A stretch of 64,000 nucleotides of DNA from Bacteroidia bacterium (GCA_044239605.1 JBIIBC010000002.1:135441-199440); one strand, 5' to 3'; counted from the stretch's first letter, positions 16,773 through 51,870 are shown. Notes: a model not told the origin generated them from the sequence alone. Made by a program: numbers and translations.

Positions 16773-18332
16773 ATGAAAAAAATTTTATTAGCAGTATTAT
16801 TATTAACTTCAATAAGCTACACAAAAGCTCAAACAAAAGACATGCCATGGCAAATTGGATTGGGTATTGGTATTTCAGAATATTCGGGCGATTTAGGCAA
16901 TGGTTTTTTTAAGTTTGACCTTACTCCACACAACGTGTCGAATAATGGTGGTGGCAAAACAGAAAACACACCAGGAATAGGTTATTTAACCATAACCAGG
17001 TATTTAAGTAACCAATTTGACATTTCGGCAAGAGGATATCTTGGAGAATGGGGATATTTTGACAAAGTAAACGTAATAGGTAGCGCTACAATAGGTAATT
17101 TTTACCGTCAAACTTTAGGATTTGAAGTTACCCCTCGTTGGAAGTTTTTAGAAAAGGATAATGCTATGTTTACTCCTTATGTTACTTTAGGTATAGGCGC
17201 AAGAAGAATAAACATGCCAAAAAACAGAATGGAAGATTTTGGGATTTTTGGTACAGACAAAGATGGTTTATATGAATTTACTGTTCCGGCTGGTTTAGGG
17301 GTAAATGTTAAATTAACTGAAAAATTTGGCATGAATATCCAATCAAATTACATGTGGACAAATAATGATAAAACAGAAGGCTTAGCTTTATACGAACAAT
17401 TAACATATGACCAAGCATGGTTCCATACTATTGGTGTAACCATGAATTTAGGTAAAATAATTGACACTGATGGTGATGGTGTTGGTGACAAAAGAGATAA
17501 ATGTCCAAATACACCAGCAGGTGATTTAGTAAACCCAACTACAGGTTGTTCAATTGACACCGATAAGGATGGAATAGCAGATAATAAAGATGCTTGTCCA
17601 TTAGTAGCTGGTGTTGTTAATTTTAAAGGCTGCCCTGATTCTGATAATGATGGAGTTCAGGATAGTGAAGACAAATGTCCAACTGTTGCGGGTGTTGTTA
17701 AATTTAAAGGTTGCCCTGATTCTGATAATGATGGAACACAAGATAGCGAAGATGCATGTCCTACCGTTGCTGGAATAGCTAAATTTAATGGTTGCCCAGA
17801 CACTGATAATGACGGTATACAAGATAGTGAAGATGCATGTCCAGCTGTAGCAGGTATTGCAGCATTCAAAGGTTGTCCTGATACTGATAATGATGGCATT
17901 GAAGATAAATTAGACAATTGCCCTAAAGTAGCAGGTGTAGCCTCAAATAATGGTTGCCCAGAAATTAAAGCTTCAGTTAAACAATTATTTGAAAAAGCAT
18001 TACAAGGTGTTCAGTTTGAAACTGGAAAATCAGTAATAAAATCTAATTCATTTGCTATTTTAAACAACGTGGCTAAAATAATGGCAGAAAATCCAACTTA
18101 TAAACTATATATTTTAGGTCATACAGATAACGTTGGAGATGCGGCTAAAAACTTAAAATTATCTCAAGACAGAGCAGCGGCTGTTGAAAAATACTTAGAA
18201 AGTAAAGGTGTAAAAACTGAAAGAGTGCGTTCGGAAGGTTTTGGAGATACAAAACCTGCTTATGATAATGCTACAAAAGAAGGAAAAACTAAAAATCGCA
18301 GAGTTGAATTCAAAGTTGAATTTGAACAATAA
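16773..18332 (+). CDS. OmpA-family outer membrane protein with thrombospondin type-3 (TSP3) calcium-binding repeats
   Basis: Signal peptide. N-terminal beta-barrel region. Repeated D-x-D-x-D-G...D...C-P motifs. C-terminal OmpA domain (ILGHTDNVGDAAKNLKLSQDRAAAV...NRRVEF). Confidence 0.85.
   Translation: MKKILLAVLLLTSISYTKAQTKDMPWQIGLGIGISEYSGDLGNGFFKFDLTPHNVSNNGGGKTENTPGIGYLTITRYLSNQFDISARGYLGEWGYFDKVNVIGSATIGNFYRQTLGFEVTPRWKFLEKDNAMFTPYVTLGIGARRINMPKNRMEDFGIFGTDKDGLYEFTVPAGLGVNVKLTEKFGMNIQSNYMWTNNDKTEGLALYEQLTYDQAWFHTIGVTMNLGKIIDTDGDGVGDKRDKCPNTPAGDLVNPTTGCSIDTDKDGIADNKDACPLVAGVVNFKGCPDSDNDGVQDSEDKCPTVAGVVKFKGCPDSDNDGTQDSEDACPTVAGIAKFNGCPDTDNDGIQDSEDACPAVAGIAAFKGCPDTDNDGIEDKLDNCPKVAGVASNNGCPEIKASVKQLFEKALQGVQFETGKSVIKSNSFAILNNVAKIMAENPTYKLYILGHTDNVGDAAKNLKLSQDRAAAVEKYLESKGVKTERVRSEGFGDTKPAYDNATKEGKTKNRRVEFKVEFEQ
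17598..17921 (+). repeat. Four tandem 81-bp (27-aa) repeats encoding TSP3 motifs inside the OmpA gene
   Basis: Copies start at 17598, 17679, 17760 and 17841, with a partial fifth copy following. Protein repeat is AG(V/I)xKFKGCPD(S/T)DNDGxQDSED(K/A)CPxV. Confidence 0.8.
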
Positions 18333-29913: not shown

Positions 29914-31170
29914 TTATTTACTTCTAATTGCATCTACAGGATTTAACTTACTAGCACTTAATGCGGGCAAAAAGCCTGAAATAACGCCTATACAAATACT
30001 TGTTAAAACTCCAATTATGATATTTTTTAAACTTAAAAAAAACACCACCTGAAAAACTGCTCCCAATACAGCTATGATACCCCAAACCAATAACAAACCT
30101 ATGATACAGCCTAATAAGCACAAGATAACTGCTTCAATTAAAAATTCGATGAGAATAAAATAATTTTTAGCCCCTAAACTTTTTTGTATGCCTATTTGAT
30201 TGGTGCGTTCCTTAACACTTACAAACATAATATTGGCTATACCAAAACCACCCACTAGCATAGCAAATAAACCAATAATCCAACCCGCTATATTTACCGT
30301 TTTAAATGTTTGATCAAGTTGTTGGGTTATGAGTGTAATTTTATTCAATGCAAAATTTTCTTCTTGTCCTGGTCGTAACTTACGCTGGCTGCGCATGATT
30401 CCATTTAGCTCTTGCTCTAAGGCAGGAACTCCTGCCATACCTGCTTTTACATGTATTTTACTATTTACATCATCACTATTAATTCTAACAAATTTTGCGG
30501 CTGCATTTATTGGAATGATGATGGCATTATCCAAACTGTTTCCTATTAAACTTTCTCCCTCTTTGGCAAAAACACCAACCACACCAAATTTAGTTCCTGA
30601 AATTTTAATACTTTTATTTACGGCACCTACATTTGGAAACAATGTTTGAGCCAAGTTATATCCTATTAAACATATTAAATTTCCATTTTCCGATTCATTT
30701 TCGGTAAAATAACGACCATCAAATAAATTAAAGTTACGTACCAAATAATAATCATGAGTAACTCCTTGAATATCTATTCCTGTAGCGCTATTCAGTCCAT
30801 TTTTTATAGTTTTACCGCCAATGGTTATGGTTAACATTTCAGCACTCGACAATACCGATTTTTGTTCTATTGATTTTAACTCACTTAATGAAGCATTAGG
30901 GCGGCTAATGTATTTCCACCATTTATAACCTGGACCAAATGTCCAAGGCATTTTTTCAATAAATACCACATCATTTCCCAAACTTTCTACACTTTGATGT
31001 AAGTTATTTTCAAAACTTTCAACTACTGCTAATACTGCTATGATACAAAAAATTCCGATAGTTATACCTAAGGTAGAAAGCAACGTGCGAACCTTATTTA
31101 CATACATAGTATGCAGCGCAGCTATGGCACTTTCTTTTATTTGCGTAAATATTATCCTAAAGTTTTTCAT
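29914..31170 (-). CDS. ABC transporter permease (MacB/FtsX family)
   Basis: MacB_PCD-like periplasmic domain between TM1 and a C-terminal FtsX 3-TM bundle. Confidence 0.8.
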   Translation of the reverse strand: MKNFRIIFTQIKESAIAALHTMYVNKVRTLLSTLGITIGIFCIIAVLAVVESFENNLHQSVESLGNDVVFIEKMPWTFGPGYKWWKYISRPNASLSELKSIEQKSVLSSAEMLTITIGGKTIKNGLNSATGIDIQGVTHDYYLVRNFNLFDGRYFTENESENGNLICLIGYNLAQTLFPNVGAVNKSIKISGTKFGVVGVFAKEGESLIGNSLDNAIIIPINAAAKFVRINSDDVNSKIHVKAGMAGVPALEQELNGIMRSQRKLRPGQEENFALNKITLITQQLDQTFKTVNIAGWIIGLFAMLVGGFGIANIMFVSVKERTNQIGIQKSLGAKNYFILIEFLIEAVILCLLGCIIGLLLVWGIIAVLGAVFQVVFFLSLKNIIIGVLTSICIGVISGFLPALSASKLNPVDAIRSK

Positions 31171-31243
31171 TTAAATGTATTGTCAAAAATGAACTTTATA
31201 TAATCAATAAAAAAGTTATTTTGATAAAAGGAAATTTTAAGAG

Positions 31244-31420
31244 CTATTTTCCAATACTATCTTCTATGTTTCTTAGTTTTACTTCGCATAACTTTACTAA
31301 AGCCTTGGCTTCTATTAATTTTTGCGAAAGTGTTTCTAAATCTATTTCATTGTTTTCCATTTGCGCTACCATTTCCTCTAATTTCTGTTGCGCTTGGCTG
31401 TATGTTATTTCTTGTGACAT
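31244..31420 (-). CDS. xseB: Exodeoxyribonuclease VII small subunit. This ORF is absent from the supplied ORF track because it is only 58 aa.
   Basis: Reverse-strand translation MSQEITYSQAQQKLEEMVAQMENNEIDLETLSQKLIEAKALVKLCEVKLRNIEDSIGK matches the XseB pattern (TYEEA..LE.IV..ENNE.DLE.L...L..AK.L...C..KLR..E). Confidence 0.75.
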   Translation of the reverse strand: MSQEITYSQAQQKLEEMVAQMENNEIDLETLSQKLIEAKALVKLCEVKLRNIEDSIGK

Positions 31421-31575
31421 TGTTTATTTATTGATTTTTGATTTGGTGATTTATTGATTTTATTGTTGGATGGTTGAATTGTTTTATTGCTGAATTGTCG
31501 ATTCCTTATTGTCGATTGCTAATTACCTTTTGTTTATTACTAATTGCCTATTGTCAATTGCTTATTGCTTATTGA

Positions 31576-31746
31576 CTATTTAACATCCGAAACTACATTC
31601 ACAATTTTGGTATCTTTAATAAAAGTTTCTACTTTATCCGCTGGTTTGGATTTGTAATCCAAATCATTTACTGTAAGGATTTGTAATCCGCTTTTTACCG
31701 TGCTTAGAATAAAGCAAATATATAAATTGAAATTATATTTTTCGCA
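31576..31746 (-). pseudogene. xseA: Possible C-terminal remnant of exodeoxyribonuclease VII large subunit (xseA) lacking a start codon
   Basis: Reverse frame reads ...ILSTVKSGLQILTVNDLDYKSKPADKVETFIKDTKIVNVVSDVK*. An in-frame stop lies at 31747..31749 and there is no Met. This sits where xseA should precede xseB. The similarity call rests on the XseA C-terminal pattern only. Confidence 0.3.
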
Positions 31747-31768
31747 TTACAAATGCTTATAATACAAA

Positions 31769-31789
31769 GTGCGGTTTGCAAAACCGCAC
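31769..31789. other. GC-rich perfect hairpin gtgcggttt-gcaa-aaccgcac
   Basis: Seen directly. Unusual GC content for this genome. Confidence 0.6.
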
Positions 31790-31849
31790 CAGCTCGCAAG
31801 GTTAGCATATCTGCACAGGCTGGGCTTCAGATTTTCGCATTAACTAAAA

Positions 31850-31871
31850 CGGTCGGTAAAAATACCGACCG
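31850..31871. other. GC-rich perfect hairpin cggtcggta-aaaa-taccgaccg
   Basis: Seen directly. Confidence 0.6.
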
Positions 31872-31887
31872 CAGGCAAAATATACTT

Positions 31888-31980
31888 AGCATAAAGTATA
31901 TTATAATTAGCATAAAGCAAAATATACTTGGCATAAAGCCTTTTATATTGAGCATAAAGCAAAAAACACTCAGCATAAAG
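31888..31980 (+). repeat. Iteron-like array: five copies of (A/G)GCATAAAG at exact 21-bp spacing (31888, 31909, 31930, 31951, 31972)
   Basis: Seen directly. The spacers alternate as well, giving a 42-bp super-period (caaaatatactt / caaaaaacactc alternating with tatattataatt / ccttttatattg). Confidence 0.8.
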
Positions 31981-32141
31981 TAAATTTATATAAATGCTTG
32001 CCACTATTTAATAAGCCGTAATAGTACCTCCCCTATTTATGGTATAATTTATTTGATTTTTACTCATTAATTAACCATAAAACTAAAATCCAATATTTTA
32101 CAGTTTTTTTTATTGCCTCACAATTATAATATTGCAATCGC

Positions 32142-33824
32142 ATGAAAAAAGTACTACTTACTCTATCTAGTTACATGGTTTGCCTAACGTTTATTAGCGC
32201 TCAGGAGGGCGATAATAAAAAAGACAAGGGCGAATTTTCGGGGAACTTTCAAAACACCAACCAATTTTATGTAAACGATCCTAAAATTGGAACCAACACT
32301 ACTCAGTATAAACGCGAATTATCAAGTTCTGATGCTTGGCTTTATTTAAACTATAAATTGAAAGGGTTTAATTTTAACTTGCGATATGATGTGTTTAACA
32401 ACTCGCCATTATTTAACCCAAGCGAGGCTTTCACTAAAAGTGGAATTGGAATATGGAGCGTTAGCAAAGACATTGATAAATTCAATATAACAGTTGGTTA
32501 TTTTTACGACCAGTTTGGTACAGGAATGGTTTTTAGGGCTTTTGAAGATAGAAACTTAGGTTTAGATTTTGCCATAAATGGTGCAAGGGTTATATACACA
32601 CCCAATGAAAACACGCAAATTAAAGCCTTTACAGGTTTACAAAAATTTAGGTTTGATGTTCGTCCAGAGGTTATTAAAGGGTTAAATATTGAACATAGAA
32701 TTGAAGTAAACGATAACTTAAATTTTCAATTAGGTGCAAGTGCCGTAAATAGAACCATTGATCAGAATACCATGAATACTATAGTAGGCGCTATTAATAA
32801 TTATGAATTAAAGAATAGATTTATACCAACTTATAATGTGTATTTGGGAAATATTTACAATACGTTAAGCTATAAAAAATTCAGCTTATACACTGAGTAT
32901 TGCCAAAAAAGCCAAGAAGCAATATTTAATCCAATATTAGACAGAATGGAGCTAAGAGATGGCCGTGTTTATTATACTAGTTTATCTTATTCAACCAAAG
33001 GTTTAGGTATCAATGCACAATACAAACGCATCGAAAGTTTTTCACTTAGAACATCGCCATTAGAAAACTTAAACTTAGGTATGATTGCTTATTTACCAAG
33101 TTTAACCCGTCAGAATACTTATCGATTATTGGCTCGTTACAATGCAGTGGTTCAGGAGTTAGGCGAAAATGCAATAGGAATGGAGTTTACTATTAAACCA
33201 CAAGGAGCTTATTTTAAAAAGCATCAAACCACTATCAATATTAATACCAGTGTAGTTACAGCCAAAGATAATTTCGATTCAAAAAGTTTAAATCCTTTTG
33301 ATTTTGAAAAAGATACTGCTCGTTATTTTAGAGAGCATTATATTGATGTATCACATAAGTTCAATAAAAAGTTCAAAGCCATGTTGGGTTTTCAATACAT
33401 AAACTATAACCAACAATTATTTGAATTAAAACCTAAAAACTATGATTATGTAACTGCCAAAACATATTTTGGAGAAATTACTTATAAACTAACTTCTACT
33501 CGGTCACTAAGAGTAGAAGCACAATACCTTGAAACCAAACAAGATTTAGGAAGTTTTATAAATGGAACAGTGGAGTTAAATATTGCTCCTCATTACTCAT
33601 TTAGTGTAGGCGATATGGTAAATGTAAATAGGGTTATTAGAGATGCCAATGCTAGCCAAGATTTAATTCATTATTGGAATGTATTTGGAAGCTACACTTA
33701 CAAAACCACAAGGTTAACAGGTGGCTATATAAAACAAGTAGAGGGGGTGAATTGTACAGGTGGTGTTTGCCGCGTAGAGCCAGCATTTAGCGGAGTTAGG
33801 GTTACTTTACAAACTAATTTTTAA
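32142..33824 (+). CDS. Putative outer-membrane beta-barrel protein
   Basis: Signal peptide MKKVLLTLSSYMVCLTFISAQ. Alternating strands. C-terminal LQTNF. Confidence 0.5.
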   Translation: MKKVLLTLSSYMVCLTFISAQEGDNKKDKGEFSGNFQNTNQFYVNDPKIGTNTTQYKRELSSSDAWLYLNYKLKGFNFNLRYDVFNNSPLFNPSEAFTKSGIGIWSVSKDIDKFNITVGYFYDQFGTGMVFRAFEDRNLGLDFAINGARVIYTPNENTQIKAFTGLQKFRFDVRPEVIKGLNIEHRIEVNDNLNFQLGASAVNRTIDQNTMNTIVGAINNYELKNRFIPTYNVYLGNIYNTLSYKKFSLYTEYCQKSQEAIFNPILDRMELRDGRVYYTSLSYSTKGLGINAQYKRIESFSLRTSPLENLNLGMIAYLPSLTRQNTYRLLARYNAVVQELGENAIGMEFTIKPQGAYFKKHQTTININTSVVTAKDNFDSKSLNPFDFEKDTARYFREHYIDVSHKFNKKFKAMLGFQYINYNQQLFELKPKNYDYVTAKTYFGEITYKLTSTRSLRVEAQYLETKQDLGSFINGTVELNIAPHYSFSVGDMVNVNRVIRDANASQDLIHYWNVFGSYTYKTTRLTGGYIKQVEGVNCTGGVCRVEPAFSGVRVTLQTNF

Positions 33825-33834
33825 GATTCAAATT

Positions 33835-34746
33835 ATGAAAAATATAATTAAAATTTTTGTTGCAAGTTTATTTTTACTTTCAGCATGTAAAGAAGAAATT
33901 CCTACTGGGTTAAATTTAACGCCTGAACGAAGTGTATTCGATACCACTTATATTACCAATACCATTCCTGCACCTCAGCCTGCAAATGTTTATATTGAAG
34001 ATTTTACAGGCGTTAAATGTCCAAATTGTCCCAGAGCCCAAGCCACTGCAAAAAACATAGCTAATGCAAATCCTAATAGAGTTGTGGTAATGGCTATTCA
34101 TCCTGGGCCAAATATTCTCAATTTTTTTGTAAGCCCTTTTAAAACTCCTGGCGATGACCACGACAGTAAATATGACTTTAGAAGCAAAGAAGGTGGTGAT
34201 ATTTTTAATATTTTAGGAAGCTCAAGCTCTTTGCCTATTGGAGCCATTAATAGAATAAAATTTTCAGGTGAAAATGTATTGATTGATGACACTAAATGGA
34301 ACAATTACACCAATTCTATTTTGGCAAGTAATTCAAAAGTAAATATTGATACATTTGGTACTAAAGGCGTATATTTTGTAGAAGCTAATAAAATTAGAAT
34401 AAATACTAAAGTTACCTTCACTACCAATATAATTGATTCGCAATATGTAAGTATAGCAATTATTGAAAATGGTTTAATTGATTTTCAGAAAAGTGGTGGA
34501 AAAGTAATTGAAGATTACGAACACGAACATGTGCTAAGAAGAATGATTACACCTTCGACTGGAAGCCAATTAAAAGCACAAATTATAGCAGGTAGGGTTT
34601 TTGAGAAAACTTTTGATTATGAAATAGCAATTGAAGAAAAGTGGAATTCGAAAAATTTAAAGGTAATTATTTTTGTACATAATGGACCCGGAGGAACAGA
34701 ACCGTATAAAGTTTTACAAGTTAAAGAATATAAAATTAACGAATGA
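33835..34746 (+). CDS. Lipoprotein with CxxC motif (Omp28-related?)
   Basis: Lipobox LLSAC. CPNCP motif. About 300 aa. Confidence 0.4.
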   Translation: MKNIIKIFVASLFLLSACKEEIPTGLNLTPERSVFDTTYITNTIPAPQPANVYIEDFTGVKCPNCPRAQATAKNIANANPNRVVVMAIHPGPNILNFFVSPFKTPGDDHDSKYDFRSKEGGDIFNILGSSSSLPIGAINRIKFSGENVLIDDTKWNNYTNSILASNSKVNIDTFGTKGVYFVEANKIRINTKVTFTTNIIDSQYVSIAIIENGLIDFQKSGGKVIEDYEHEHVLRRMITPSTGSQLKAQIIAGRVFEKTFDYEIAIEEKWNSKNLKVIIFVHNGPGGTEPYKVLQVKEYKINE

Positions 34747-35333
34747 AAATAAGAAGTTTTGTTATTTTATACTTATTGGTATTATGCTCTTGTAATGGAA
34801 TTGATCAAGCTTATTTAGATTCCATTTTAGCGCATAGAAACAGCGCCAACCACACTTTTTTTGATGCTCAAACCACCCCACTTGATACCAATAAATTGAA
34901 AACATTTACTGGTTTAAAGTTTTTTGAAGTAAACCCAAATTATAAGGTTACTGCTACTTTAACTAAGTATGCCGATATGCCTCATTTTGAATTGCCTCAT
35001 TCGCACAATAGCACAAAACCTTACACGCAATATGGTAAAATCAATTTTACTTTAAATGGTAATAATTGTGAACTTACTGTACTAGAAGCCGTAAATAAAA
35101 AAGAAGAATATAAAAACTACTTGCTTATTTGTTTTACCGATTTAACCACCGGTACCGAAACTTATGGTGGAGGCCGTTATTTAGATATAGAAATACCTAA
35201 AAACAACTTGGTGGATATTGATTTTAACTTGGCTTATCATCCGTACTGTTTGTACAATAGCAATTTTACTTGCCCAATTCCTCCTAAAGAAAATTTTATA
35301 AATACTAGAATTGAAGCTGGCGAAAAACTTTAA
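34743..35333 (+). CDS. DUF1684 domain protein
   Basis: C-terminal motif LAYHPYCLYNSNFTCPIPPKENFINTRIEAGEK characteristic of DUF1684. Start overlaps the previous gene by 4 bp. Confidence 0.65.
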   Translation: MKIRSFVILYLLVLCSCNGIDQAYLDSILAHRNSANHTFFDAQTTPLDTNKLKTFTGLKFFEVNPNYKVTATLTKYADMPHFELPHSHNSTKPYTQYGKINFTLNGNNCELTVLEAVNKKEEYKNYLLICFTDLTTGTETYGGGRYLDIEIPKNNLVDIDFNLAYHPYCLYNSNFTCPIPPKENFINTRIEAGEKL

Positions 35334-35369
35334 CATAAAAAAGTTTTTCGCCTACAAATAATTATTACA

Positions 35370-37469
35370 CTAATCTTTTAAATACTTACCTAACCATTCA
35401 AAGAATACACGTTGCCAAAGCACACTATTTTGAGGCTTGGTAACCCAATGGTTTTCATCGGGGAAGTATAAAAATCTACTTGGAACTCCTTTTATTTGTG
35501 CAGCAGTAAATGCTTCCATTCCTTGTCCTAGCGGTACTCTAAAGTCCTTTTCATTATGTATTACTAAAATGGGTGAATCCCAGTTTTGAACAAACTTATG
35601 CGGAGAGGCATTAAAATTATTAGGGTTATCAGTTTGACTCCAATACGGTCCTTTATTGTCGTTATTGGCAAAATACATTTCTTCGGTGGTTCCATACCAA
35701 CTTTCCATGTTAAACATGCCACAATGAGCTATAAATGTTTTAAATCTTTTGTTATGATTACCTGCTAACCAATAAACTGAAAAGCCACCAAAGCTTGCTC
35801 CTACTGCGCCTAACTTATCTTTATTTACGTATGGCTCATTACTAATATCATCAATGGCACTAAAATAATCTTTCATACATTGTCCACCATAATCGCCTGT
35901 AATGGCATCGTTCCATTCACTTCCATGTCCTGGCATTCCGCGTCTGTTAGGTGCAATAACAATATAACCATTAGCGGCCATTAATTGAAAATTCCATCGG
36001 TAACTAAAAAACTGAGTCAAGGCACTTTGAGGTCCGCCTTGACAATAAAGTAATGTTGGATATTTTTTAGTGGCATCAAAGTTTGGCGGATAAATAACCC
36101 AACTTAGCAAGTCTTTTCCATCAGTAGTTTTAGTGATTCTTTTTTCTACTTTACCCATTTTAACTTCATCTAAAATAGCCTTGTTGGTAAAAGTAATTTG
36201 CTTTTCTGTTTTACTTTTTGGATCAATAATAAATAGTTCGGTAGGCATGCTAATCGACATTCTTGAACCTAATAGCATTGTTTTTTTACCAATTTTATAA
36301 ACTGAAACTGAAGTGTAATCATGATCACCATTAGTAATTTTTTCAGGATATTTATTGTTTGCAATTCTAAAATCATTGGTATAATAAATTTGCTTAGTAC
36401 CTTTATCAATAACGATGTAATAAAAACTTAAATCACTGTCAAATTCAAAGTTTTCAATATGTAAATCTTTAACTGGTGAACCTGTCAATTCAAATCTAAT
36501 CACTGGTGTTTTCTCTCCTCTTATCATTTCATAATTTGTATCAATTGGTAAATCCAACACACAAATTCTCTGATTGTCACTTTCATTTCCTGCTCCAATC
36601 ATTTGCAGCCAAGCTATTTTATTACCACTTGGCGAATATTTAGGATTGCGATCATAGCCTTTATTGCTTGCTGAAAGATTCAAAGTTTTTTGTGTCAATA
36701 AGTCATATTCGTAAATATCGCTATTGGTTGAAATGGCCTCGGCAGTTCCAGATAATTTCCTGCTATTGTAAGCTAATTTTGTTCCATCAGGACTCCAATT
36801 AAATTCATCATCATCGCCATGTGGTTGTAAAGGACAATCAAATTTTTCATCCTTCATAATATCTAATGCATAGCCATTAGTTTCTCCATTTGAATAAGGT
36901 ATAATAAACAAATGACTGTACGCATAATCGTGCCAACTATCCCAGTGGCGGTAAAATAATCCATCAATAATTCTTGCATTGCATTTATCCAAATCAGGGT
37001 AAATTTCTTTTACTTCTTTATCCAGTTTCACATCTGCCGTAAAAGCTATGTGTTTCATTATTGGTGAATACTTATAACCACTTATTCCTCCATTAAAATT
37101 AGTAACTTTGGTTTTATTGCTTCCGTCCAAATTCATTTCCCAAAGTTGCACATCACCGCTTTTAGCACTCAAAAAACTAATTTTATTTCCAATGGGTGTG
37201 AATCGTGCACCAAATGCATTTAAATCCCCATCAGTCAATACAGTTTTATTTTCACCATTGATGGTAATACTGTAAATAATGTTAGTGCTTTTATTGGTTT
37301 TAATACTGTAATTTCTTACACTATAAATAACGGTTTTTCCATCATTCGAAACTTGAGCATCAGCCACGCGGCCTAGCTGCCAAAGGTTATCAATAGTAAG
37401 GTTTTGTTGTGCCATAGCAGTATATAAGCTACAAAAAAGAAATAAAAATTTAAAAATAGATTTTATCAT
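35370..37469 (-). CDS. S9 family serine peptidase (prolyl oligopeptidase / DPP-like) with N-terminal beta-propeller
   Basis: Signal peptide. Propeller repeats. Catalytic GASFGGFSV (G-x-S-x-G-G). Catalytic Asp/His present in the C-terminal alpha/beta-hydrolase region. Confidence 0.85.
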   Translation of the reverse strand: MIKSIFKFLFLFCSLYTAMAQQNLTIDNLWQLGRVADAQVSNDGKTVIYSVRNYSIKTNKSTNIIYSITINGENKTVLTDGDLNAFGARFTPIGNKISFLSAKSGDVQLWEMNLDGSNKTKVTNFNGGISGYKYSPIMKHIAFTADVKLDKEVKEIYPDLDKCNARIIDGLFYRHWDSWHDYAYSHLFIIPYSNGETNGYALDIMKDEKFDCPLQPHGDDDEFNWSPDGTKLAYNSRKLSGTAEAISTNSDIYEYDLLTQKTLNLSASNKGYDRNPKYSPSGNKIAWLQMIGAGNESDNQRICVLDLPIDTNYEMIRGEKTPVIRFELTGSPVKDLHIENFEFDSDLSFYYIVIDKGTKQIYYTNDFRIANNKYPEKITNGDHDYTSVSVYKIGKKTMLLGSRMSISMPTELFIIDPKSKTEKQITFTNKAILDEVKMGKVEKRITKTTDGKDLLSWVIYPPNFDATKKYPTLLYCQGGPQSALTQFFSYRWNFQLMAANGYIVIAPNRRGMPGHGSEWNDAITGDYGGQCMKDYFSAIDDISNEPYVNKDKLGAVGASFGGFSVYWLAGNHNKRFKTFIAHCGMFNMESWYGTTEEMYFANNDNKGPYWSQTDNPNNFNASPHKFVQNWDSPILVIHNEKDFRVPLGQGMEAFTAAQIKGVPSRFLYFPDENHWVTKPQNSVLWQRVFFEWLGKYLKD

Positions 37470-37495
37470 AATGTGAATTTATTTATAAAAAAACA

Positions 37496-37557
37496 AACCG
37501 CTTAATAACAAAATACTCAATACTTGAACAGTATTTATTTGATGTTATTAAGCGGTT
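37496..37557 (-). terminator. 15-bp perfect inverted repeat (aaccgcttaataaca ... tgttattaagcggtt) followed on the - strand by a T-run
   Basis: Seen directly downstream of the 37583..37999 gene. Confidence 0.55.
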
Positions 37558-37582
37558 TAAAATTAATAATTTGGCCTTTTAT

Positions 37583-37999
37583 TTACCAAACATATTGTGA
37601 TTTATTCATTAACAAGGCCTCTCCTACCAATGTATCTGCGCCTGTAGCCACATCAACAATTTTGGTTTCGTAAAGTACACGGTTTTTTTCAGGAAAAATT
37701 TCTTTTACAGTAATTACAGCTTGGTAATCTGTATCAACAAACATTGGTTTTAAAAAAGTATTATTTTGTTTCATGTAAATATGTCCTTCGGCATAATACA
37801 ATGCGCCAAATATTTTAGTAAACACACTTGCACTAAAATGCCCATGAATAATATTACGTCCAAAAATACTTGCTTTTCCTGCCTCAGGGTTGGTGTGTAA
37901 TGGATTGGTATCTCCACTAATTTGTGCATATAAATTTACTTGCTCTTGGGTGTATTTAATATTGTGTGTAAATACATCGCCTACATTTGGTGCTGCCAT
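37583..37999 (-). CDS. MaoC-like (R)-specific enoyl-CoA hydratase / hotdog-fold dehydratase
   Basis: 138-aa hotdog pattern (TNPLHTNPEAGKASIFGRNIIHG). Confidence 0.6.
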   Translation of the reverse strand: MAAPNVGDVFTHNIKYTQEQVNLYAQISGDTNPLHTNPEAGKASIFGRNIIHGHFSASVFTKIFGALYYAEGHIYMKQNNTFLKPMFVDTDYQAVITVKEIFPEKNRVLYETKIVDVATGADTLVGEALLMNKSQYVW

Positions 38000-40513: not shown

Positions 40514-43500
40514 TTATTGCTTAACAAACTTTCTTGTTAAGCTATAACCTTTATTATCAGTTACCTTTATTAAGTAAATTCCGCTAGTTAAATCATCAAT
40601 AACTATTGTGTTATTGGTTAATACCGCATTTTTAACCAAAGCACCTGATAGTGCAAATATTTGAATATCTGTAATATCTGTATTACTTTCAATACTTAAT
40701 GTTTTAGTAGCAGGATTAGGATAAATTGTAAATGTTAATGGATTAATAGTTTCTAAACCCACATTCTGAATTACCAATGTATTGCTAGTTGCTTCGCAAT
40801 TGGTAGCATCTTTTACTTTTACAGTATAATCGCCATTGGCTACCGCAGTATGAGTTGCATTAATAGCTCCTGCAATTATTACATTATTTAAATACCATTG
40901 GTAATTGCTAAAGCCAGCCGTTGCAGTTAATGTATTTTGATTGTTACTTATACTAACTGTTAATGGTGCATTTACTGTTAAGTTTAAAGTTATTATTGAA
41001 TCGCATCCTACAGCATTACTTGTAGTATCAAAGTAAATTCCTGATTGGCTTAAAGCATTGCCTTTAAAGGTAAATGTTTCGCCATTACAAATGGTTTTGT
41101 TAAAGTTAAAAACCGATTTTGCCTTAACCGAAACAGCTGCAATAGCTGAATTTACTGTTCCGCAGCTTGATGTAACTTCACAAATATAGTTACCTGCATC
41201 GCTGTTTGATAAACTATTAAAGTACAGCGTATCATTATTTGAATTAGCCACAGCAGTCCCATTTTTAAACCAATTATAATTATTGTTATTGCCAGAGGCA
41301 ACCAAACTTAAATAAGAAACTGAGCCTTGGCATGAATTAACTGCACTTGGCTGAGTTAAAATATTTATACTATTAACTATGCTTAATTTAGCTACAGATG
41401 AATTTTGGCTACCGCAAGTTCCTGAAATTGAAACTGTATAATTACCAGAATCGGCAGCACTAACTAAAGTTTTGCTAAAAGTGCTGCTGTTTGCTCCAGC
41501 AATACTATTGCCATTTAACTTCCATTGATATTGTAAACTATCGCCCGTGGCTATTACACTAAAGTTAAAACCTTGGCTTGTGCATACCGTTTGTGAAACT
41601 GGCTGTGAAGTAATTTGGGTAGAATTACTTATTGATAAAGTTACTGTATTAGAAATAACATTTCCACACGTATAATTCATAATTACCCTATAGTTAGCTG
41701 CATCGGCAGTAGTAACATTGGTTAATAACAAAGAATCATTATTACTATTTGGAATACTTACCCCATTTTTTTGCCAAACATAAGTTACATTTTGTCCATT
41801 TGTTTTTATTACAAAAAGTGCATTTGTATTTGTACATACATATAGATTAGTAGGCTGACTTGTTATTTGAAGTGCATCAATAAATTTCACCAAAGCAACA
41901 TTTGACAATATACTAGAACAACCATTTGAAACCATCACTGTAAATGAATCATTATTGACTACATTAGCAATATTTACACTATATATTGAGTTAAAAGCAT
42001 TTGGTATATTTATTCCATTTTTTTTCCATTGGTAAGTTAAATTTGAACCAGTGGCATTTACTTGAAATGTGATAAATTGATTTTCTTGAAGTGGGCAAAT
42101 GTTTTGATTCGTAGGATGCGAGGTAATAGCTAAATTACTCTGAATAATACTTAAATTAATATTGGTAGAATATACACCTGCACAAGCTGTAGACAAACCA
42201 ATTAAACATGAATAGCTTCCGGTATCAGTGGCCTGCACATTATTAACGGTATATGTAGCAGCATTTGCACCTTGAATTGGACTACCATTTTTTAGCCATT
42301 GGTAAGTTACATTTGGTCCTGCGGTAACGTTAACAGTAGCCGAAGCAGTACTTCCTAAACACACAGCTCCAAAACCCGAAATACTATTAAATTCAGCCAT
42401 TTGGAATAAAGCACTAACTTGAGTGGCTGTTAAAACTGAACTGTAAATACGTATTTCATCAAAAGTTCCCTTGGCACCATTGGTATTATAAATGGGTGCA
42501 GTATTACCAAAACGATTGATTTGAGTATTGCTAGCGCCACTTCCCATAACTGGTGGAGCTACTATAGTAGTTGGAATGGTAATATTATTTCCATCAACAT
42601 AAATTTTGGTAGTAGTTCCGGCTTTGGTTACTACAAAATGATGCCAACCATTGGTAATAGTAACTCCTAAAGATTGAAAACCAGAACCACCAACTTGATA
42701 ACCTAAAACACCAGAAGCATTGATAAATAGCATATCGCCATAATTGGCGCTATTACTTCCAATAATGGCTTCACCAGCAAAATTCGCTACACGTTTATAC
42801 CATAATGATACCGAAATATTATCTGTAGTTACAGGACTGGTTAAAGCCAATGCATTATTTGTTGTTGTTAACACAACTGCTTTGTTGGCAATATTTGCTC
42901 TATCGGTTGTAAACGAATAGCTGGTATTTGTAGGTGTGAATGTATTTGTGCCAACCGTTGGTGTTAAATTATTATCAAACTTCCAATAGCTAACTAAATT
43001 ATTAGTAGCAAAATTAGTTGTAATACTAAAAGTACTAGCATTACTTACAAGTACATTGTTTGAACAACCTGTAATTTCGCAAGTATAATTGCCTGCATCA
43101 CTGCTTTGAACAGCACTAATCATTAAGGTGTCGTTATTTGTATTCGGAATGTTTACATTGTTCTTTTTCCATTGATATGATGCAGCATTTTGAGCACCCA
43201 CAAAAAAATAAACACTGCTACCCAAACAAACCAAACTATTTGAAACTGTGGTATTAGTTGTAATAGTTGCTGCTGCTGCTGTTAATGTTGCTGCATTTGA
43301 ATTAATTATAACACTGTTACAACCTGTAACTTCACAAGTATAGCTTGTAAAATCAGAAGTGGTAATATTTGTTAAAATTAATGTATCGTTATTTGAATTT
43401 GGAATAACCACCCCATTTTTTTTCCAAACATAACTTTGTCCTCCTGCTACATTAATAGTAAACATGGCTGTTTCTCCAACACATGCAGCTTGATTTACTG

Positions 43501-46243
43501 GTTGGCTTACTATAGTACTATTTATAATACCAGTCAAATAAATGTTGTAATCTACTGAATTACAAAAGTTATCTGAAATAGAATTACGCAAATACAAGTC
43601 GGTTGAAGGCATTGAGTTAATAGTTAAAGCATTGGTTTTAACGCCTGCGTAACTTGCGCCATTTACCAAAGCACTAAAGGTTCCTTTTGTTACTTCATTA
43701 AACCATTGATAACTTAAACCACTATTACCAGCTATAACTTGCACTGTGGTTGAAACACCAGCGCAAATGGGCACTGCACCTAAACTGCTGGCCGCAGGTA
43801 ATTGCCCATAAATTTTTATATCGTTGTATAATTGAAGTACATTTCCAGCTTTTAAAGTTGAAGTTATTCTTACATCATCTATTAAACCTTCAAAAAACTG
43901 GTTATTTCCTGTAAAGTTAACATTAGCTAAAGTGGTATTTAAATAACCATTTCCAATTTTAAAAATATTAGATGTACCTATTTGCAATGCTGCTGAGGTC
44001 ATACTTCCCACTTCTACTCCATCAAGGTAAATAATTTGTTTGCCCAAAGCAGCACTATATGTCCAAACTGCATGATGCCAATTGGTATCCATAACAATCC
44101 CCGATGAATAAATTGGTAAGCCACTTCCTGGATAAACATAACCCGATAAACGACCTGTTGAATCTAAGTATAAAATTGGATTCCACGAACCAGGACTTGC
44201 TACTTGAAAACCAATCAAGCTCATAGCTTTTCGATTTAAATTAGCTCTTTTAAACCAAACCGACACACCATTATTGTTGCCTGAAATCATACTTCCAGTA
44301 ACATCAATTACTGATGAAGTTCCATTAAAAACAGCCGCTTTGTTATTTACTCCATACCTATCTTTTCCGTAAGTAATAGCGGTTGCCACACCATTTTGGG
44401 TAGTAGCAAGTTCATTTAAAGTATTACCATCTAATGGATAACTATAGTTTGAAGTAAAACTAGTTAAGGTAGTTAATGTTATTTTCTTTGACCATTTTTC
44501 ACCGCAATTATTTGAAACTTTGCATTGGTAAATTCCGGCTGTAGTGTTAATTATATTTGCAAAAGTATCGGCTGTTAATAATACACCATTTCTATACCAT
44601 TGGTATTTTAAAGGCATGGTTAAAGATGAAGCTACTGCAGTTACATTTATTTTACAGCTTTCAATATTATCGGCACTATTAATGTTTAAATTAATAATGC
44701 AAGGTTCTCCCACATATTTAGCCAATACAGTATTAGTAGCAGTGGCATTTAATAAAGGCAAATTAGGACTCAATTTTGTGCTATCTGTATTATGCGTGTT
44801 AACATATGTACCTGCTACAAAAATTGAGCTAGAATCGGTAACAGCAATTCCTGTAAAACCATCGCTACTATTGGCAGTATTGGTTAAAACAGCTGCATAA
44901 TCCAAATTTAAATTAGCGTTATATTTTGCATAATAAGAATCGAAAGTATTTGATGTACTGCGCAGGTAAGTTGAAGTTGGATTCCTATCAAAATCAAAAG
45001 TTCCATTGGCAGCACCAGAAAAGAAATAATTGCCTTTTTTATCAATATAGAAACCATTTACATACATGTTAGGAAAACCGTCAATGGTGTCAATAACCAT
45101 TCTAGGTTCTTTATTGCCAGTTATTAATGTTCCATTGGTTGCATTATAATGAGCTAAATACAGGCTATACAATCCTGTAGGCAAACGTTTTGAAATAAAA
45201 TTATAAACCCCAGTAGCGTTAGGATTTAAATCAACTGTGCTAGCCCAATTTGATTGATAAGCCACAGCTAGCTCATTATTACTGTTAAATGCTAAACGCA
45301 TGTTTGAATTAGTAGTTCCTACAGCAATTGGACAAGTCCATAATACGTTAAAGTTTGTAGCATTATAAGCTACTATACATTGAGGACCAGTTTCGTTAAA
45401 AGCAGTGCTATTGCCTTGGTTAAAGTTTGTTGAACCATTTAAATCGACTGCCCAATATAAAGTATCATTACGCATTTTCATATCCCATGAGCTTCCAATT
45501 AAGCCGCCATTTATAAATCTATGGTTTAGGTAGGTTAAGTTTGCGGTAAGTCTAACCAAATAGTCAGCAGTTCCGCTTGAAGAACTATAGGTAGTTGGTG
45601 CTTGAAAACCAGGTGCGGGATCTAAATCAATACTCCGTAAGATAGAACCAGTTACTCCATAACGTCCACGAACAACCACATTTTCATTTTTATCAAACAC
45701 ACAACTTAGCATATCATTAGCTACTGAACCTCCGTTATTTCCATCGTTAGCTAAACCATGAGATCCCAATAAAGTGCCATTATTATTAATGGTTGCCATA
45801 TAAGCTCCACCTGAATTACCAAACAATGTACTTGTTGAATAACCTCCTACTAAAACGACTTTTCCGCCTGCGGACACATCAAAAAAATTACAAGTACCTG
45901 CCGAAATAGAAGTAACCCAAACCAATTCTTTATTGGGAGTGTATTTAGCAATGTAAACTCCTACTGACGTATTTGAAGTTGCTGCACCTGGATCAAAATC
46001 TGCATTTCCGCCCGTTTGTCCAACCAAGTAAAGATTGCCTAAACTATCGGTTTTCACACCTTTGTTTAAGGCATTGGTAAGACCAAAACTCCACGCATGT
46101 TGAGGCGTTTTTGATTGTGCTATTAAACCATTAAAGTTAAAAATAGCATAAAGTATAAAGGCAACCTTTATGGCTTCATACTTTATTTTTAGTTTAAAAT
46201 TTGTTTTGTTTATATTGTTCATAATATTTGTATTACTGCACAA
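40514..46243 (-). CDS. Giant T9SS type-A cargo protein with multiple Ig-like domains and two LamG-like (concanavalin A-like lectin) domains. Adhesin-like.
   Basis: C-terminal Por_Secre_tail (IYPNPATKTLSIE...GIYLIKVTDNKGYSLTRKFVKQ). About eight Ig-like repeats (YQWKKNG...SGNYTCEV). LamG_3 signatures (LIDDVRITSTLKAGNVLQLY, FDEIRIYSSVLTATQVSALF). Confidence 0.8.
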   Translation of the reverse strand: MCSNTNIMNNINKTNFKLKIKYEAIKVAFILYAIFNFNGLIAQSKTPQHAWSFGLTNALNKGVKTDSLGNLYLVGQTGGNADFDPGAATSNTSVGVYIAKYTPNKELVWVTSISAGTCNFFDVSAGGKVVLVGGYSTSTLFGNSGGAYMATINNNGTLLGSHGLANDGNNGGSVANDMLSCVFDKNENVVVRGRYGVTGSILRSIDLDPAPGFQAPTTYSSSSGTADYLVRLTANLTYLNHRFINGGLIGSSWDMKMRNDTLYWAVDLNGSTNFNQGNSTAFNETGPQCIVAYNATNFNVLWTCPIAVGTTNSNMRLAFNSNNELAVAYQSNWASTVDLNPNATGVYNFISKRLPTGLYSLYLAHYNATNGTLITGNKEPRMVIDTIDGFPNMYVNGFYIDKKGNYFFSGAANGTFDFDRNPTSTYLRSTSNTFDSYYAKYNANLNLDYAAVLTNTANSSDGFTGIAVTDSSSIFVAGTYVNTHNTDSTKLSPNLPLLNATATNTVLAKYVGEPCIINLNINSADNIESCKINVTAVASSLTMPLKYQWYRNGVLLTADTFANIINTTAGIYQCKVSNNCGEKWSKKITLTTLTSFTSNYSYPLDGNTLNELATTQNGVATAITYGKDRYGVNNKAAVFNGTSSVIDVTGSMISGNNNGVSVWFKRANLNRKAMSLIGFQVASPGSWNPILYLDSTGRLSGYVYPGSGLPIYSSGIVMDTNWHHAVWTYSAALGKQIIYLDGVEVGSMTSAALQIGTSNIFKIGNGYLNTTLANVNFTGNNQFFEGLIDDVRITSTLKAGNVLQLYNDIKIYGQLPAASSLGAVPICAGVSTTVQVIAGNSGLSYQWFNEVTKGTFSALVNGASYAGVKTNALTINSMPSTDLYLRNSISDNFCNSVDYNIYLTGIINSTIVSQPVNQAACVGETAMFTINVAGGQSYVWKKNGVVIPNSNNDTLILTNITTSDFTSYTCEVTGCNSVIINSNAATLTAAAATITTNTTVSNSLVCLGSSVYFFVGAQNAASYQWKKNNVNIPNTNNDTLMISAVQSSDAGNYTCEITGCSNNVLVSNASTFSITTNFATNNLVSYWKFDNNLTPTVGTNTFTPTNTSYSFTTDRANIANKAVVLTTTNNALALTSPVTTDNISVSLWYKRVANFAGEAIIGSNSANYGDMLFINASGVLGYQVGGSGFQSLGVTITNGWHHFVVTKAGTTTKIYVDGNNITIPTTIVAPPVMGSGASNTQINRFGNTAPIYNTNGAKGTFDEIRIYSSVLTATQVSALFQMAEFNSISGFGAVCLGSTASATVNVTAGPNVTYQWLKNGSPIQGANAATYTVNNVQATDTGSYSCLIGLSTACAGVYSTNINLSIIQSNLAITSHPTNQNICPLQENQFITFQVNATGSNLTYQWKKNGINIPNAFNSIYSVNIANVVNNDSFTVMVSNGCSSILSNVALVKFIDALQITSQPTNLYVCTNTNALFVIKTNGQNVTYVWQKNGVSIPNSNNDSLLLTNVTTADAANYRVIMNYTCGNVISNTVTLSISNSTQITSQPVSQTVCTSQGFNFSVIATGDSLQYQWKLNGNSIAGANSSTFSKTLVSAADSGNYTVSISGTCGSQNSSVAKLSIVNSINILTQPSAVNSCQGSVSYLSLVASGNNNNYNWFKNGTAVANSNNDTLYFNSLSNSDAGNYICEVTSSCGTVNSAIAAVSVKAKSVFNFNKTICNGETFTFKGNALSQSGIYFDTTSNAVGCDSIITLNLTVNAPLTVSISNNQNTLTATAGFSNYQWYLNNVIIAGAINATHTAVANGDYTVKVKDATNCEATSNTLVIQNVGLETINPLTFTIYPNPATKTLSIESNTDITDIQIFALSGALVKNAVLTNNTIVIDDLTSGIYLIKVTDNKGYSLTRKFVKQ

Positions 46244-46295
46244 ATATTTATGGTTAGCATATTTATTTATTAGTAGTTTATACTAACTCCATTTT

Positions 46296-46453
46296 TGATT
46301 TGACAAAAACCTAATTTTTAAGTTTTACTAATACTAACTACCTATAAAAACAATGCATAACAACAATACTTACAATTAACTAAACTTAAAATAAAAACAA
46401 AAAAAGCCCAACCTTTCGGTTGAGCCTCCTATATGAAAACGAACTACTAACTT
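46296..46453 (-). repeat. Shared 3'-flank/terminator module, copy a. Includes the terminator hairpin at 46392..46425.
   Basis: About 155 bp, nearly identical to 47521..47671. Contains ggctcaaccgaaaggttgggc followed by a T-run on the - strand. Confidence 0.75.
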
Positions 46454-47446
46454 TTATTCTTTTATAAATTTATTGGTGTATAAATTTCCTTTTTCATCTT
46501 TAATTTGAATGGTGTATATTCCTATTGGTAAAGTGCTAATATCAATTGAGTTGTTTATGATATCAAACTCAGAAGTTTGTCCCATACAATTTATGGTAAT
46601 TACTTCTTTAATTTTAACATCACTTTTTATATTTAATTTATTTTGGGTTGGGTTTGGAAATACATTTATCATGCTAGTTTTTATGTTTTCAATGCTAGAA
46701 GAATTGCCATTATGAATATTTGCTACCTCTAGCTGACTTAGCTCTCTATTATAAAGATACAATTCATCCATAAAAGAATTGTATTGCGATTGCCCATTTT
46801 CAAATAATCCTCCTACCATTAAATAGTCTTTGTTAAAATATGTGCCATTACCATAAGTATTTATAGTGGCAGGAAAACTGGTATTTGTACCTTCTAATAT
46901 GCCATTTACATATATCTTACCTACCCCATTATTATAGCTAACAGCTATGTGGTACCAGTTATAGTTTTGAGTTAATGTAGTGGACGATACAATTACATCA
47001 TTACAAGTAAAATGGATTTTTCTATCAATATTCGATATCCATAGTGCATAATTATTGTATATAGAAACACCTCCATTACCATTAGATATATTGGCTCTAT
47101 TTACAAATATAAAACCATTTTGAAGCATATTTGCCGTTGGCTGTGCCCATACACTAGCAGAAAATGTATTGGTAAAATTAAAATCATTTGATGGATGATA
47201 TAATGCCGAAAAAATATCTTTATCAAAAGCTGCTAATGATTTACCAATTTTACTGGTATCGGACAACCTAAAACTTTGATCAGAGCTAGTTTTTGATACA
47301 TAAATTAAATGTCGGTTATTACCCGATGCATCGTTAAAATTTTCATCGAAAGAGTATCTTCCAACTAAACCATTGGTTGGAACTGTTTGTCCAAAAAGGC
47401 TTGCTGATGCACAAATTGCAAATACTGTTGTAATTATTTTTTTCAT
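46454..47446 (-). CDS. T9SS type-A cargo protein with LamG-like (Laminin_G_3) lectin domain, paralog 1
   Basis: True start MKKIITTVFAICASASLFGQ at 47446. The ORF-track N-terminal extension METGYCVNF... is a conserved 5' leader. LamG pattern (WYHIAVSYNNGVGKIYVNG...MDELYLYNRELS). CTD VFPNPTQNKLNIKS...YTIQIKDEKGNLYTNKFIKE. Confidence 0.75.
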   Translation of the reverse strand: MKKIITTVFAICASASLFGQTVPTNGLVGRYSFDENFNDASGNNRHLIYVSKTSSDQSFRLSDTSKIGKSLAAFDKDIFSALYHPSNDFNFTNTFSASVWAQPTANMLQNGFIFVNRANISNGNGGVSIYNNYALWISNIDRKIHFTCNDVIVSSTTLTQNYNWYHIAVSYNNGVGKIYVNGILEGTNTSFPATINTYGNGTYFNKDYLMVGGLFENGQSQYNSFMDELYLYNRELSQLEVANIHNGNSSSIENIKTSMINVFPNPTQNKLNIKSDVKIKEVITINCMGQTSEFDIINNSIDISTLPIGIYTIQIKDEKGNLYTNKFIKE

Positions 47447-47520
47447 TTTTCTGTTATTGAATGCAGCAAAGTTGACACAATAGCCCGTCTCCATTTTTAT
47501 ATAATTTACCTACGCCTTTT

Positions 47521-47671
47521 TTGATTTGACAAAAACCTAAATTTTTAAGTTTTACTAATACTAACTACCTACAAAAACAATGCATAACACCAATACTTAA
47601 AATTAACTAAACTTAAAATAAAAAAAAAACTTTTCGGTTGAGCCTTCTATATGAAAACGAACTACTAACTT
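47521..47671 (-). repeat. Shared 3'-flank/terminator module, copy b (terminator partly degraded)
   Basis: Near-identical to 46296..46453. A third partial copy begins at 48704. Confidence 0.75.
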
Positions 47672-48628: not shown

Positions 48629-48902
48629 TTTTCTGTTATTGAATGCAGCAAAGTTGACACAACAGCCCGTCTCCATTTTTATACAATTTACTTACGCCTT
48701 TTTTGATTTGACAAAAACCTAATTGATTTTACTAAAGAAAAACAATGAACAATTAATCTAAAATGTTAATTTATTAACTATTTAAAAAATTACTTTACAA
48801 TTAACTATATCTACTTTTGCAATATACATTTTACTAAAGTAACTTTTTATTTTACCAAATATTATGCTAATAGTAAACAAATTGTAATTTTGAACATACC
48901 AA

Positions 48903-51803: not shown

Positions 51804-51870
51804 AATCAAAGAACACTTAAGTAAAACATGTCTAAATTTTAATATACTTTGATTTTATATTTGAAACCTA

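Follow-up and report, generated by a model that had tools for sequence, protein, structure and literature searches.

The window analysed here, a 64,000-nucleotide stretch of DNA, comes from the genome of a freshwater representative of the Bacteroidia with a GC content of 31%; over positions 30431-37824 it is identical to the Logan contig SRR27421862_96972, and a 270-kb contig with the same product is present in the protein database. The repeat array under study lies in a 721-bp gap between xseB (31244..31420, minus strand), which encodes the 58-aa small subunit of exonuclease VII and was recognized by a Pfam mark on the gene called in L136, and the divergently oriented DUF6029 gene (32142-33824, plus strand; Pfam E = 9e-130). 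The latter is the first gene of an operon (32142..35333, plus strand) which, according to the annotation, continues with the Omp28 (33835-34746, plus strand) and DUF1684 (34743-35333, plus strand) genes, the trio being found together in all relatives. DUF6029 has been tied to the Wzi-like outer-membrane beta-barrels by one paper (PMC9603273). The genes that flank the array are housekeeping ones (xseB, a MacB/FtsX permease, sodA), and no transcription factor genes were found within 15 kb of it, the LytTR regulator of the window being 20 kb distant. From left to right, the gap contains a CAAT/ATTG-rich array, a 154-bp segment, a GC-rich hairpin (hairpin B below), the 21-bp array, an inverted partial copy of its core and, finally, the promoter region of the operon. 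The 21-bp array is situated 160-255 bp upstream of the operon, in agreement with the initial annotation, which had placed it about 165 bp upstream of an outer-membrane gene starting at 32142: the fifth core ends 162 bp before the ATG, and the gene is DUF6029.

The 63 bp directly preceding the operon (32079..32141, plus strand), which comprise its core promoter and leader, are 100% identical to those of L087, a pond Bacteroidetes MAG whose operon consists of the same DUF6029-Omp28-DUF1684 trio (89.5% identity of the DUF6029 proteins). No other upstream DNA is shared by all relatives, so the core promoter of the operon is self-sufficient. The border between the block that carries the array and the block that carries the operon can be placed at 32077..32078, where one relative leaves the window sequence and others join it: L167 departs from the window past 32077, and relatives without the 21-bp array (L154 to L160 and L174 to L178) rejoin it from about 32080-32085. 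The trio looks like a cassette, with which only about 63 bp of upstream DNA move; in relatives of 96-98% identity its left neighbour is xseB, a DUF4114/DUF4842 gene, or uvrB with a hypothetical gene, and the right side sometimes differs as well. In L167 (1-1330, reverse strand) the array block is joined at 32077 to GC-rich DNA that contains three copies of the motif TTTAGTACCCATT, followed by small ORFs. This foreign half, which matched neither phage DNA nor PHROG, could be either an element inserted there or a chimera of the assembly.

The whole tandem array (31875..31992, plus strand), supported by the repeat analysis and the alignments with L152 and L087, consists of five 21-bp units and a leading spacer. 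Motif counting bore out the five 9-bp direct repeats in exact 21-bp phase that the initial annotation had described: the cores, all on the plus strand, occupy positions 31888..31896, 31909..31917, 31930..31938, 31951..31959 and 31972..31980, the first, second, fourth and fifth reading AGCATAAAG and the third GGCATAAAG, so that RGCATAAAG is the common core motif of the five copies. The consensus of the unit is AGCATAAAG yAAAwtATAcTn. In the next 21-bp register there follows an inverted partial core, AATGCTTGC (31993..32001, plus strand; repeat pairs D13 and I2), whose ATGCT corresponds to AGCAT on the opposite strand; in L087 this place is taken by TATGCTTTT. The repetition is far above chance. 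There are six copies of the 9-mer in the window, where 1.72 would be expected, and none of 100 shuffles reached six (the sixth copy, at 46145, is intragenic), and the phased pair, with up to three mismatches, gives four overlapping matches in the 64-kb window against 0.31 expected, all of them within the array; no second phased site was found elsewhere in the 64 kb, even at three mismatches. Positions 31875-31986 are described by TRF as 5.3 copies of a 21-bp period (70% matches) and as 2.7 copies of a 42-bp period (80% matches). Exact phasing alone is weak evidence, since any tandem duplication yields an exact period.

The 42-bp super-period proposed in the initial annotation was supported only in part. 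One type of spacer does recur every 42 bp (CAAAATATACTT in the 12 nucleotides before core 1, CAAAATATACTT again, and then CAAAAAACACTC), whereas the intervening spacers have 3-7 of 12 bases in common pairwise, and the higher-order structure in L087 is that of 63-84 bp blocks. Intrinsic DNA curvature was rejected: in a wedge model, whose parameters are reportedly those of Bolshoy and Trifonov, the array is bent by 28 degrees, compared with 39 +/- 21 for shuffles and 127 for a phased A-tract control.

A search of 185,579 species genomes for the phased pair AGCATAAAG-N12-AGCATAAAG, of the kind the initial annotation had called for, returned at least 120 loci. It did find L087, where ten 21-bp-phased units stand upstream of the orthologous DUF6029 gene, but L087 was the only true relative among the matches listed; most of the others turned out to be coding repeats or heptamer runs of the type (AAAGCNN)n, the latter in Chitinophaga, Puia, Aquirufa and elsewhere. 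The array was thus found in two lineages only, that of the window and that of L087, among the matches listed and the orthologous operons retrieved via the protein databases. Within this set it is confined to them rather than being part of a widespread degenerate mobile-element remnant, with the caveat that simple arrays of the heptamer AAAGCAT, of which the 9-mer makes up 1.3 copies, are common among Bacteroidota. AAAGCNN runs (AAAGCAT, AAAGCTG, AAAGCAG and others; e.g., in L004, L049, L101, L111 and L057) are frequent between the genes of Chitinophaga, Puia, Aquirufa, Cytophagaceae and others; often they form the inverted arms around a GC-rich hairpin that follows a gene, or sit directly before a terminator.

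In both lineages the array stands upstream of DUF6029 and in the same orientation, despite different genes farther upstream (in L087 these are two genes for small secreted proteins). Within the lineage of the window, five identical units were found in 12 other contigs from different samples; since the ten population contigs examined were retrieved by the exact sequence of the product, a look-up that returns identical arrays only, they tell nothing about variation of the copy number. Many close relatives do without the array: it is missing from operons with an identity of 97-98% (L154, L155, L158-L160), 96% (L156), 91% (L161) and 85-90% (L138, L139, L163, L174-L178), in all of which the sequence becomes homologous to the window only about 60-65 bp ahead of the ATG. 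Some relatives have unrelated arrays at the same place upstream of the operon. In L141 (2366-2764) and at the start of L157 it is a 43-bp unit, with GGTAT[AC]T[CG]C every 21-22 bp, repeated 9.3 times in L141; in L137 (1-120) it is a 14-bp unit in 8.6 copies. According to our own reading of the sequences, the single-copy stretch 31800-31828 of the window resembles the 43-bp unit, so different pieces of one homologous region may have been amplified in different lineages.

These data bear on the view that the array is a minisatellite with no sequence-specific function, derived from the heptamers AGCATAA/AGCAAAA/TATACTT (3 x 7 = 21), amplified in a repeat-prone intergenic patchwork and persisting as harmless or as mere spacer DNA. 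Such an origin is consistent with the heptamer character of the 9-mer and of most of the phased-pair matches listed, with the amplification of other segments in relatives and the lack of the array in close ones, with the change from five to ten copies by block duplication, and with the presence of a second array, having 7-, 8- and 21-bp periods, in the same gap (31421-31600). The array resembles the (AAAGCNN)n arrays of Bacteroidota in the AAAGCAT word, in the relation 21 = 3 x 7 and in its position beside a hairpin, as those arrays often adjoin hairpins or terminators; it differs from them in that they are near-perfect 7-bp runs, often arranged as two arms of a palindrome, whereas here 1.3 heptamers are kept per 21 bp and there is no inverted partner array. 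Similar comparisons can be made with the heptad arrays of known promoters, i.e., the TTTTGAT heptads of Vibrio cholerae ctxAB (ToxR, H-NS) and the omega-repressor heptads of pSM19035, where short direct repeats also follow one another without gaps upstream of a promoter and vary in number by strain, the array being likewise of heptamer ancestry; but their period is 7 bp, while that of the array is 21 bp, with diverged and stable units. That the array is the top-scoring non-coding tandem repeat of the 64-kb window counts against a mere minisatellite.

The comparison of the two lineages also tells against such a minisatellite. The five units of the window are collinear orthologues of the last five units of L087, the additional units of which arose as block duplications of 63-84 bp. 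Between orthologous spacers, 8-11 of 12 positions agree (10-11 in four of the five pairs), compared with 3-9 of 12 for paralogous ones, which indicates that the units are old and have not been homogenized, as they would have been in an active VNTR. Identity between the orthologous units is 87.6% (13 differences in 105 positions), whereas at the four-fold degenerate sites of the adjacent gene it is only 57.8% between the window and L087 (96 of 166), and both immediate flanks of the array are unalignable. With L152, whose genes are about 96% identical and whose neighbouring DNA is 84-96% identical, the array shows no differences in 118 bp. None of the 15 units departs from the hexamer CATAAA, whereas identity among the spacers has dropped to 25-75% (0.1-1.65 bits per spacer position); a secondary conserved pattern, A16, A18 and T20, lies about one turn from the core. 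Within the orthologous units, CATAAA has 0 changes at 30 positions against 13 at 75 elsewhere (Fisher p = 0.018), but, as the core was defined post hoc and the units are about four independent ones, this contrast of core and spacer is borderline after correction (our own estimate is about p = 0.05). Judged by these alignments, the array is under purifying selection, dispensable and lineage-restricted, and a minisatellite without sequence-specific function seems somewhat unlikely to us, though it deserves serious consideration.

The other elements of the gap are of interest on their own. Directly upstream of xseB, positions 31421-31600 consist of about 180 bp of CAAT(A/T)(A/G)N repeats (sequence of the xseB strand); their period is 7-8 bp and, at 31507-31574, 21 bp; L152 has one additional 8-bp unit past 31464. 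The 154-bp segment (31640..31793), detected as inverted repeat I1, ends in hairpin-like inverted repeats GCTGG...CCAGC (in full, GCTGGTTTGGATTTGTAATCC ... GGTTTGCAAAACCGCACCAGC) and includes hairpins at 31642-31666, 31677-31689 (followed by TTTTT) and 31768-31790. The rest of the window and the loci retrieved contain neither REP- nor MITE-like copies of this hairpin segment. It also includes a degenerate solo unit, AGAATAAAG CAAATATATAAA (31706..31726, plus strand; repeat family D4), with counterparts in L137 and L087. In L087 (7172-7323) the segment has the opposite orientation, with 78% identity over 153 bp, the orientation of the adjacent array being unchanged.

The inverted-repeat ends and the inversion in L087, together with the different copy numbers of the array in the two lineages (five and ten), might be taken as signs of a contingency switch that operates either by changes in repeat number or by flipping of the 154-bp segment as an inverton. 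However, the ten population contigs from the lineage of the window, taken from different samples, all share the orientation seen in the window, and no recombinase is encoded by the annotated neighbours; hence an active inverton was rejected, the inversion being one between lineages only. As for the copy number, the units are diverged and, in contrast to tracts prone to slippage, have stayed stable while neutral sites diverged by about 40%, and steps of 21 bp preserve the helical phase. We therefore consider a switch of either kind very improbable.

Hairpin B (CGGTCGGTA-AAAA-TACCGACCG, followed by TTTT on the minus strand; 31850..31871, minus strand), found by hairpin search, looks like an intrinsic terminator of the minus strand and lies 16 bp to the left of core 1. 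In L152 its top base pair has undergone a compensatory change from A-T to G-C (31858 A>G, 31863 T>C). Considering that the 81 bp to the left of the array, which span the hairpin, are only 84% identical to L152, this paired change suggests that the stem itself has been selected. Hairpin B could mark the end of a minus-strand small RNA that contains five CUUUAUGCU motifs, terminates at 31871-31850 with UUUU and acts via the repeated motifs, for instance by titrating an RNA-binding protein or another RNA. Besides the terminator-like hairpin with its T-run directly downstream and the compensatory change in it, such an RNA would account for the conservation of the spacers alongside the cores and for the separability of the array block from both neighbouring genes. 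Both strands of the array also fold well below shuffles (z from -5.3 to -6.6), but any DNA with internal inverted repeats would give scores of this kind, which moreover are similar on the two strands. No promoter is recognizable, conservation with L087 on the right side of the array ends after about 20 bp, and hairpin B is absent from L087, where no terminator follows the array. Nor are the predicted hairpins of the array itself kept, GGC...GCC of unit 3 being replaced by AGC...TTC in L087. Taken together, these points make a small RNA rather unlikely. A known structured RNA family was ruled out by Rfam at both gathering and relaxed thresholds: nowhere in the window did a family of Rfam 15 reach its gathering score, the best sub-threshold hit having 25.4 bits against a cut-off of 46.

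Coding functions of the array were rejected in each of its three open frames in the window. The plus-strand frame (SIK) is interrupted by TAA stops in L087; the minus-strand LYA frame, which corresponds to the product of the gene caller, has no ORF of at least 20 aa in L087; and in the minus-strand FML frame, open in both lineages, those changes across the orthologous units that were translated are mostly non-synonymous. For the 54-aa ORF and for the 58-aa product of the gene caller, database relatives came from the same locus only. Another tandem repeat of the window, 4.4 copies of 81 bp at 17555-17907, is located inside an OmpA-family gene (16773-18332) and is probably an ordinary coding repeat, since this gene has a thrombospondin type 3 repeat match.

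The initial annotation had pointed to the binding arrays of LytTR-family regulators and to plasmid or phage iterons as the two systems with a matching geometry. Its reading of the region 48903-52611 proved correct: a LytS-type histidine kinase (PF06580) and a response regulator with a LytTR domain are encoded there. According to the LytTR proposal, this regulator (51871-52611) or another LytTR protein would bind the 9-bp repeats as dimers with 12-bp spacing. LytTR regulators are numerous in Bacteroidota, and 9-bp direct repeats with 12-bp A+T-rich spacers and a 21-bp period are the hallmark of AgrA-, ComE- and PlnC-type sites, so the geometry of the array, with all copies on one face of the helix, does fit. 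The known sites (AgrA P2/P3, ComE, PlnC/PlnD and BrsR, as well as YpdB and BtsR of Escherichia coli) resemble the array in having direct repeats of about 9 bp, A+T-rich spacers of 12 bp, centres 21 bp apart and same-face protomers upstream of a promoter. The remainder of the proposed match did not hold. The core AGCATAAAG fits six of the nine positions of the consensus, which reportedly goes back to Nikolskaya and Galperin in 2002 and reads [TA][AC][CA]GTTN[AG][TG]; it lacks the GTT centre, and the reverse strand fits worse. As known LytTR motifs are diverse, this mismatch excludes LytTR only weakly. Many LytTR systems autoregulate, but no motif pair, even with up to three mismatches, was found upstream of the LytS/LytTR genes or their neighbours (48600-48960 was read directly), and the array has no cognate regulator next to it, the pair being 17 kb and the regulator 20 kb away. 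LytTR sites are usually pairs, occasionally triplets, and a contiguous run of five to ten is atypical.

Moreover, spacings of 21-22 bp between direct repeats are also used by AraC/XylS-type regulators and by iteron-binding Rep proteins, so the geometry fails to single out LytTR. The half-sites of AraC/XylS regulators (araI1-araI2, XylS at Pm, MelR) are likewise direct repeats 21 bp apart upstream of a promoter, and MelR may have several sites, as in the array; they differ in being 15-18 bp long, usually two to five in number and not all contiguous. Among the annotated genes of the window there is none of the AraC type. Our literature search on LytTR sites in Bacteroidetes and on 21-bp repeats in Flavobacterium yielded nothing relevant. 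On balance, it is improbable that the array is a LytTR site. A near-identical motif, TTTGATTTGACAAAAACCTAATT, was noticed at 46290-46320 and 48695-48725, in two gaps among the three genes of Laminin_G_3/type IX secretion cargo proteins (40514-48676). One copy is upstream of the gene 40514-46243 and the other upstream of the gene 47672-48676, in the gap shared with the divergent LytS/LytTR pair, and these sites look like more natural targets of the regulator of that pair than the array does.

As to the iterons, the array might represent a plasmid or phage replication or partition site left in the chromosome. Iteron origins (those of R6K, RK2, P1, F and pSC101, and the origin of Vibrio chromosome 2) contain three to nine direct repeats with a period of about 21-23 bp, a conserved core with variable flanks, an A+T-rich setting and a varying copy number. 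The five to ten repeats of the array, their period, their conserved core and the variable junctions of the array block are in line with this, and A+T-richness spans the whole gap, just as it does the whole genome. Other results speak against it. A blastn search with 31600-32141 found no match in 72,556 plasmids and 50,697 phages, so that the presence of the array on such elements, raised in the initial annotation, received no support from the collections; the 15 pattern matches in viral contigs were coding repeats or heptamer runs, none of them a true relative. No rep, par or integrase gene is located nearby, the neighbours being housekeeping genes, and the conserved part of the unit is only 9 bp. 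The pseudo-protein that covers the array is confined to the lineage of the window. No DnaA box (TTATCCACA, up to one mismatch) was found in 30536-36984, and there is no switch of GC skew at the array; on these two grounds an origin or terminus of replication was rejected, too. An iteron remnant thus appears hardly credible.

We tentatively favour, as a reading with somewhat less than an even chance of being right, that the array is a same-face run of putative protein-binding sites which serves as an optional upstream regulatory module of the DUF6029 operon. The arguments are the invariant hexamer within diverged units, the conserved island between unalignable flanks, and the conserved position and orientation; in addition, coding, curvature, known RNA families and plasmid or phage elements were tested and weakened. 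On the other hand, the putative binder has no candidate gene within 15 kb and no second site in the 64 kb, the last core is 170 bp from the ATG in the window but 203 bp in L087, the difference of 33 bp being a non-integer number of helical turns, and operons of 90-98% identity do without the array. The unrelated 43-bp and 14-bp arrays at the same place in relatives mean that a repeat-prone region fits the data as well as regulation does.

If it is a protein-binding array, it would be a cis-acting DNA element with five sequence-specific docking sites, ten in the sister lineage, each consisting of the invariant CATAAA inside RGCATAAAG and lying exactly two helical turns from the next one. Such spacing would align the bound protomers on one face of the helix and could allow them to bind cooperatively. 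The array would then be an operator or an enhancer-like module added to the conserved 63-bp core promoter of the operon, and the protein bound to it might either activate or repress transcription. A more specific version of this scheme, which we consider improbable, is an iteron-like chromosomal platform on which a response regulator or another transcription factor polymerizes head-to-tail along one face of the DNA. Five protomers or dimers would be accommodated here and ten in the sister lineage, and phase-preserving block duplications in steps of 21 bp might set how strongly an operon for surface or polysaccharide-export functions is expressed, the platform being a portable module bolted onto a self-sufficient core promoter.

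In its general kind, that of direct-repeat operators or iteron-like arrays, the array is familiar and would not surprise a specialist. Its value lies rather in the natural variants with 0, 5 and 10 units on an otherwise identical promoter, which make it a convenient substrate for identification of the regulator and are suited to asking how the number of sites sets the output. Cis-regulatory DNA in Bacteroidota is poorly mapped, and we know of no binding sites for the many LytTR and hybrid AraC-type regulators of free-living Bacteroidota. If the array turns out to be only a tolerated minisatellite, it would serve as a caution against inferring the family of a regulator from repeat geometry alone.
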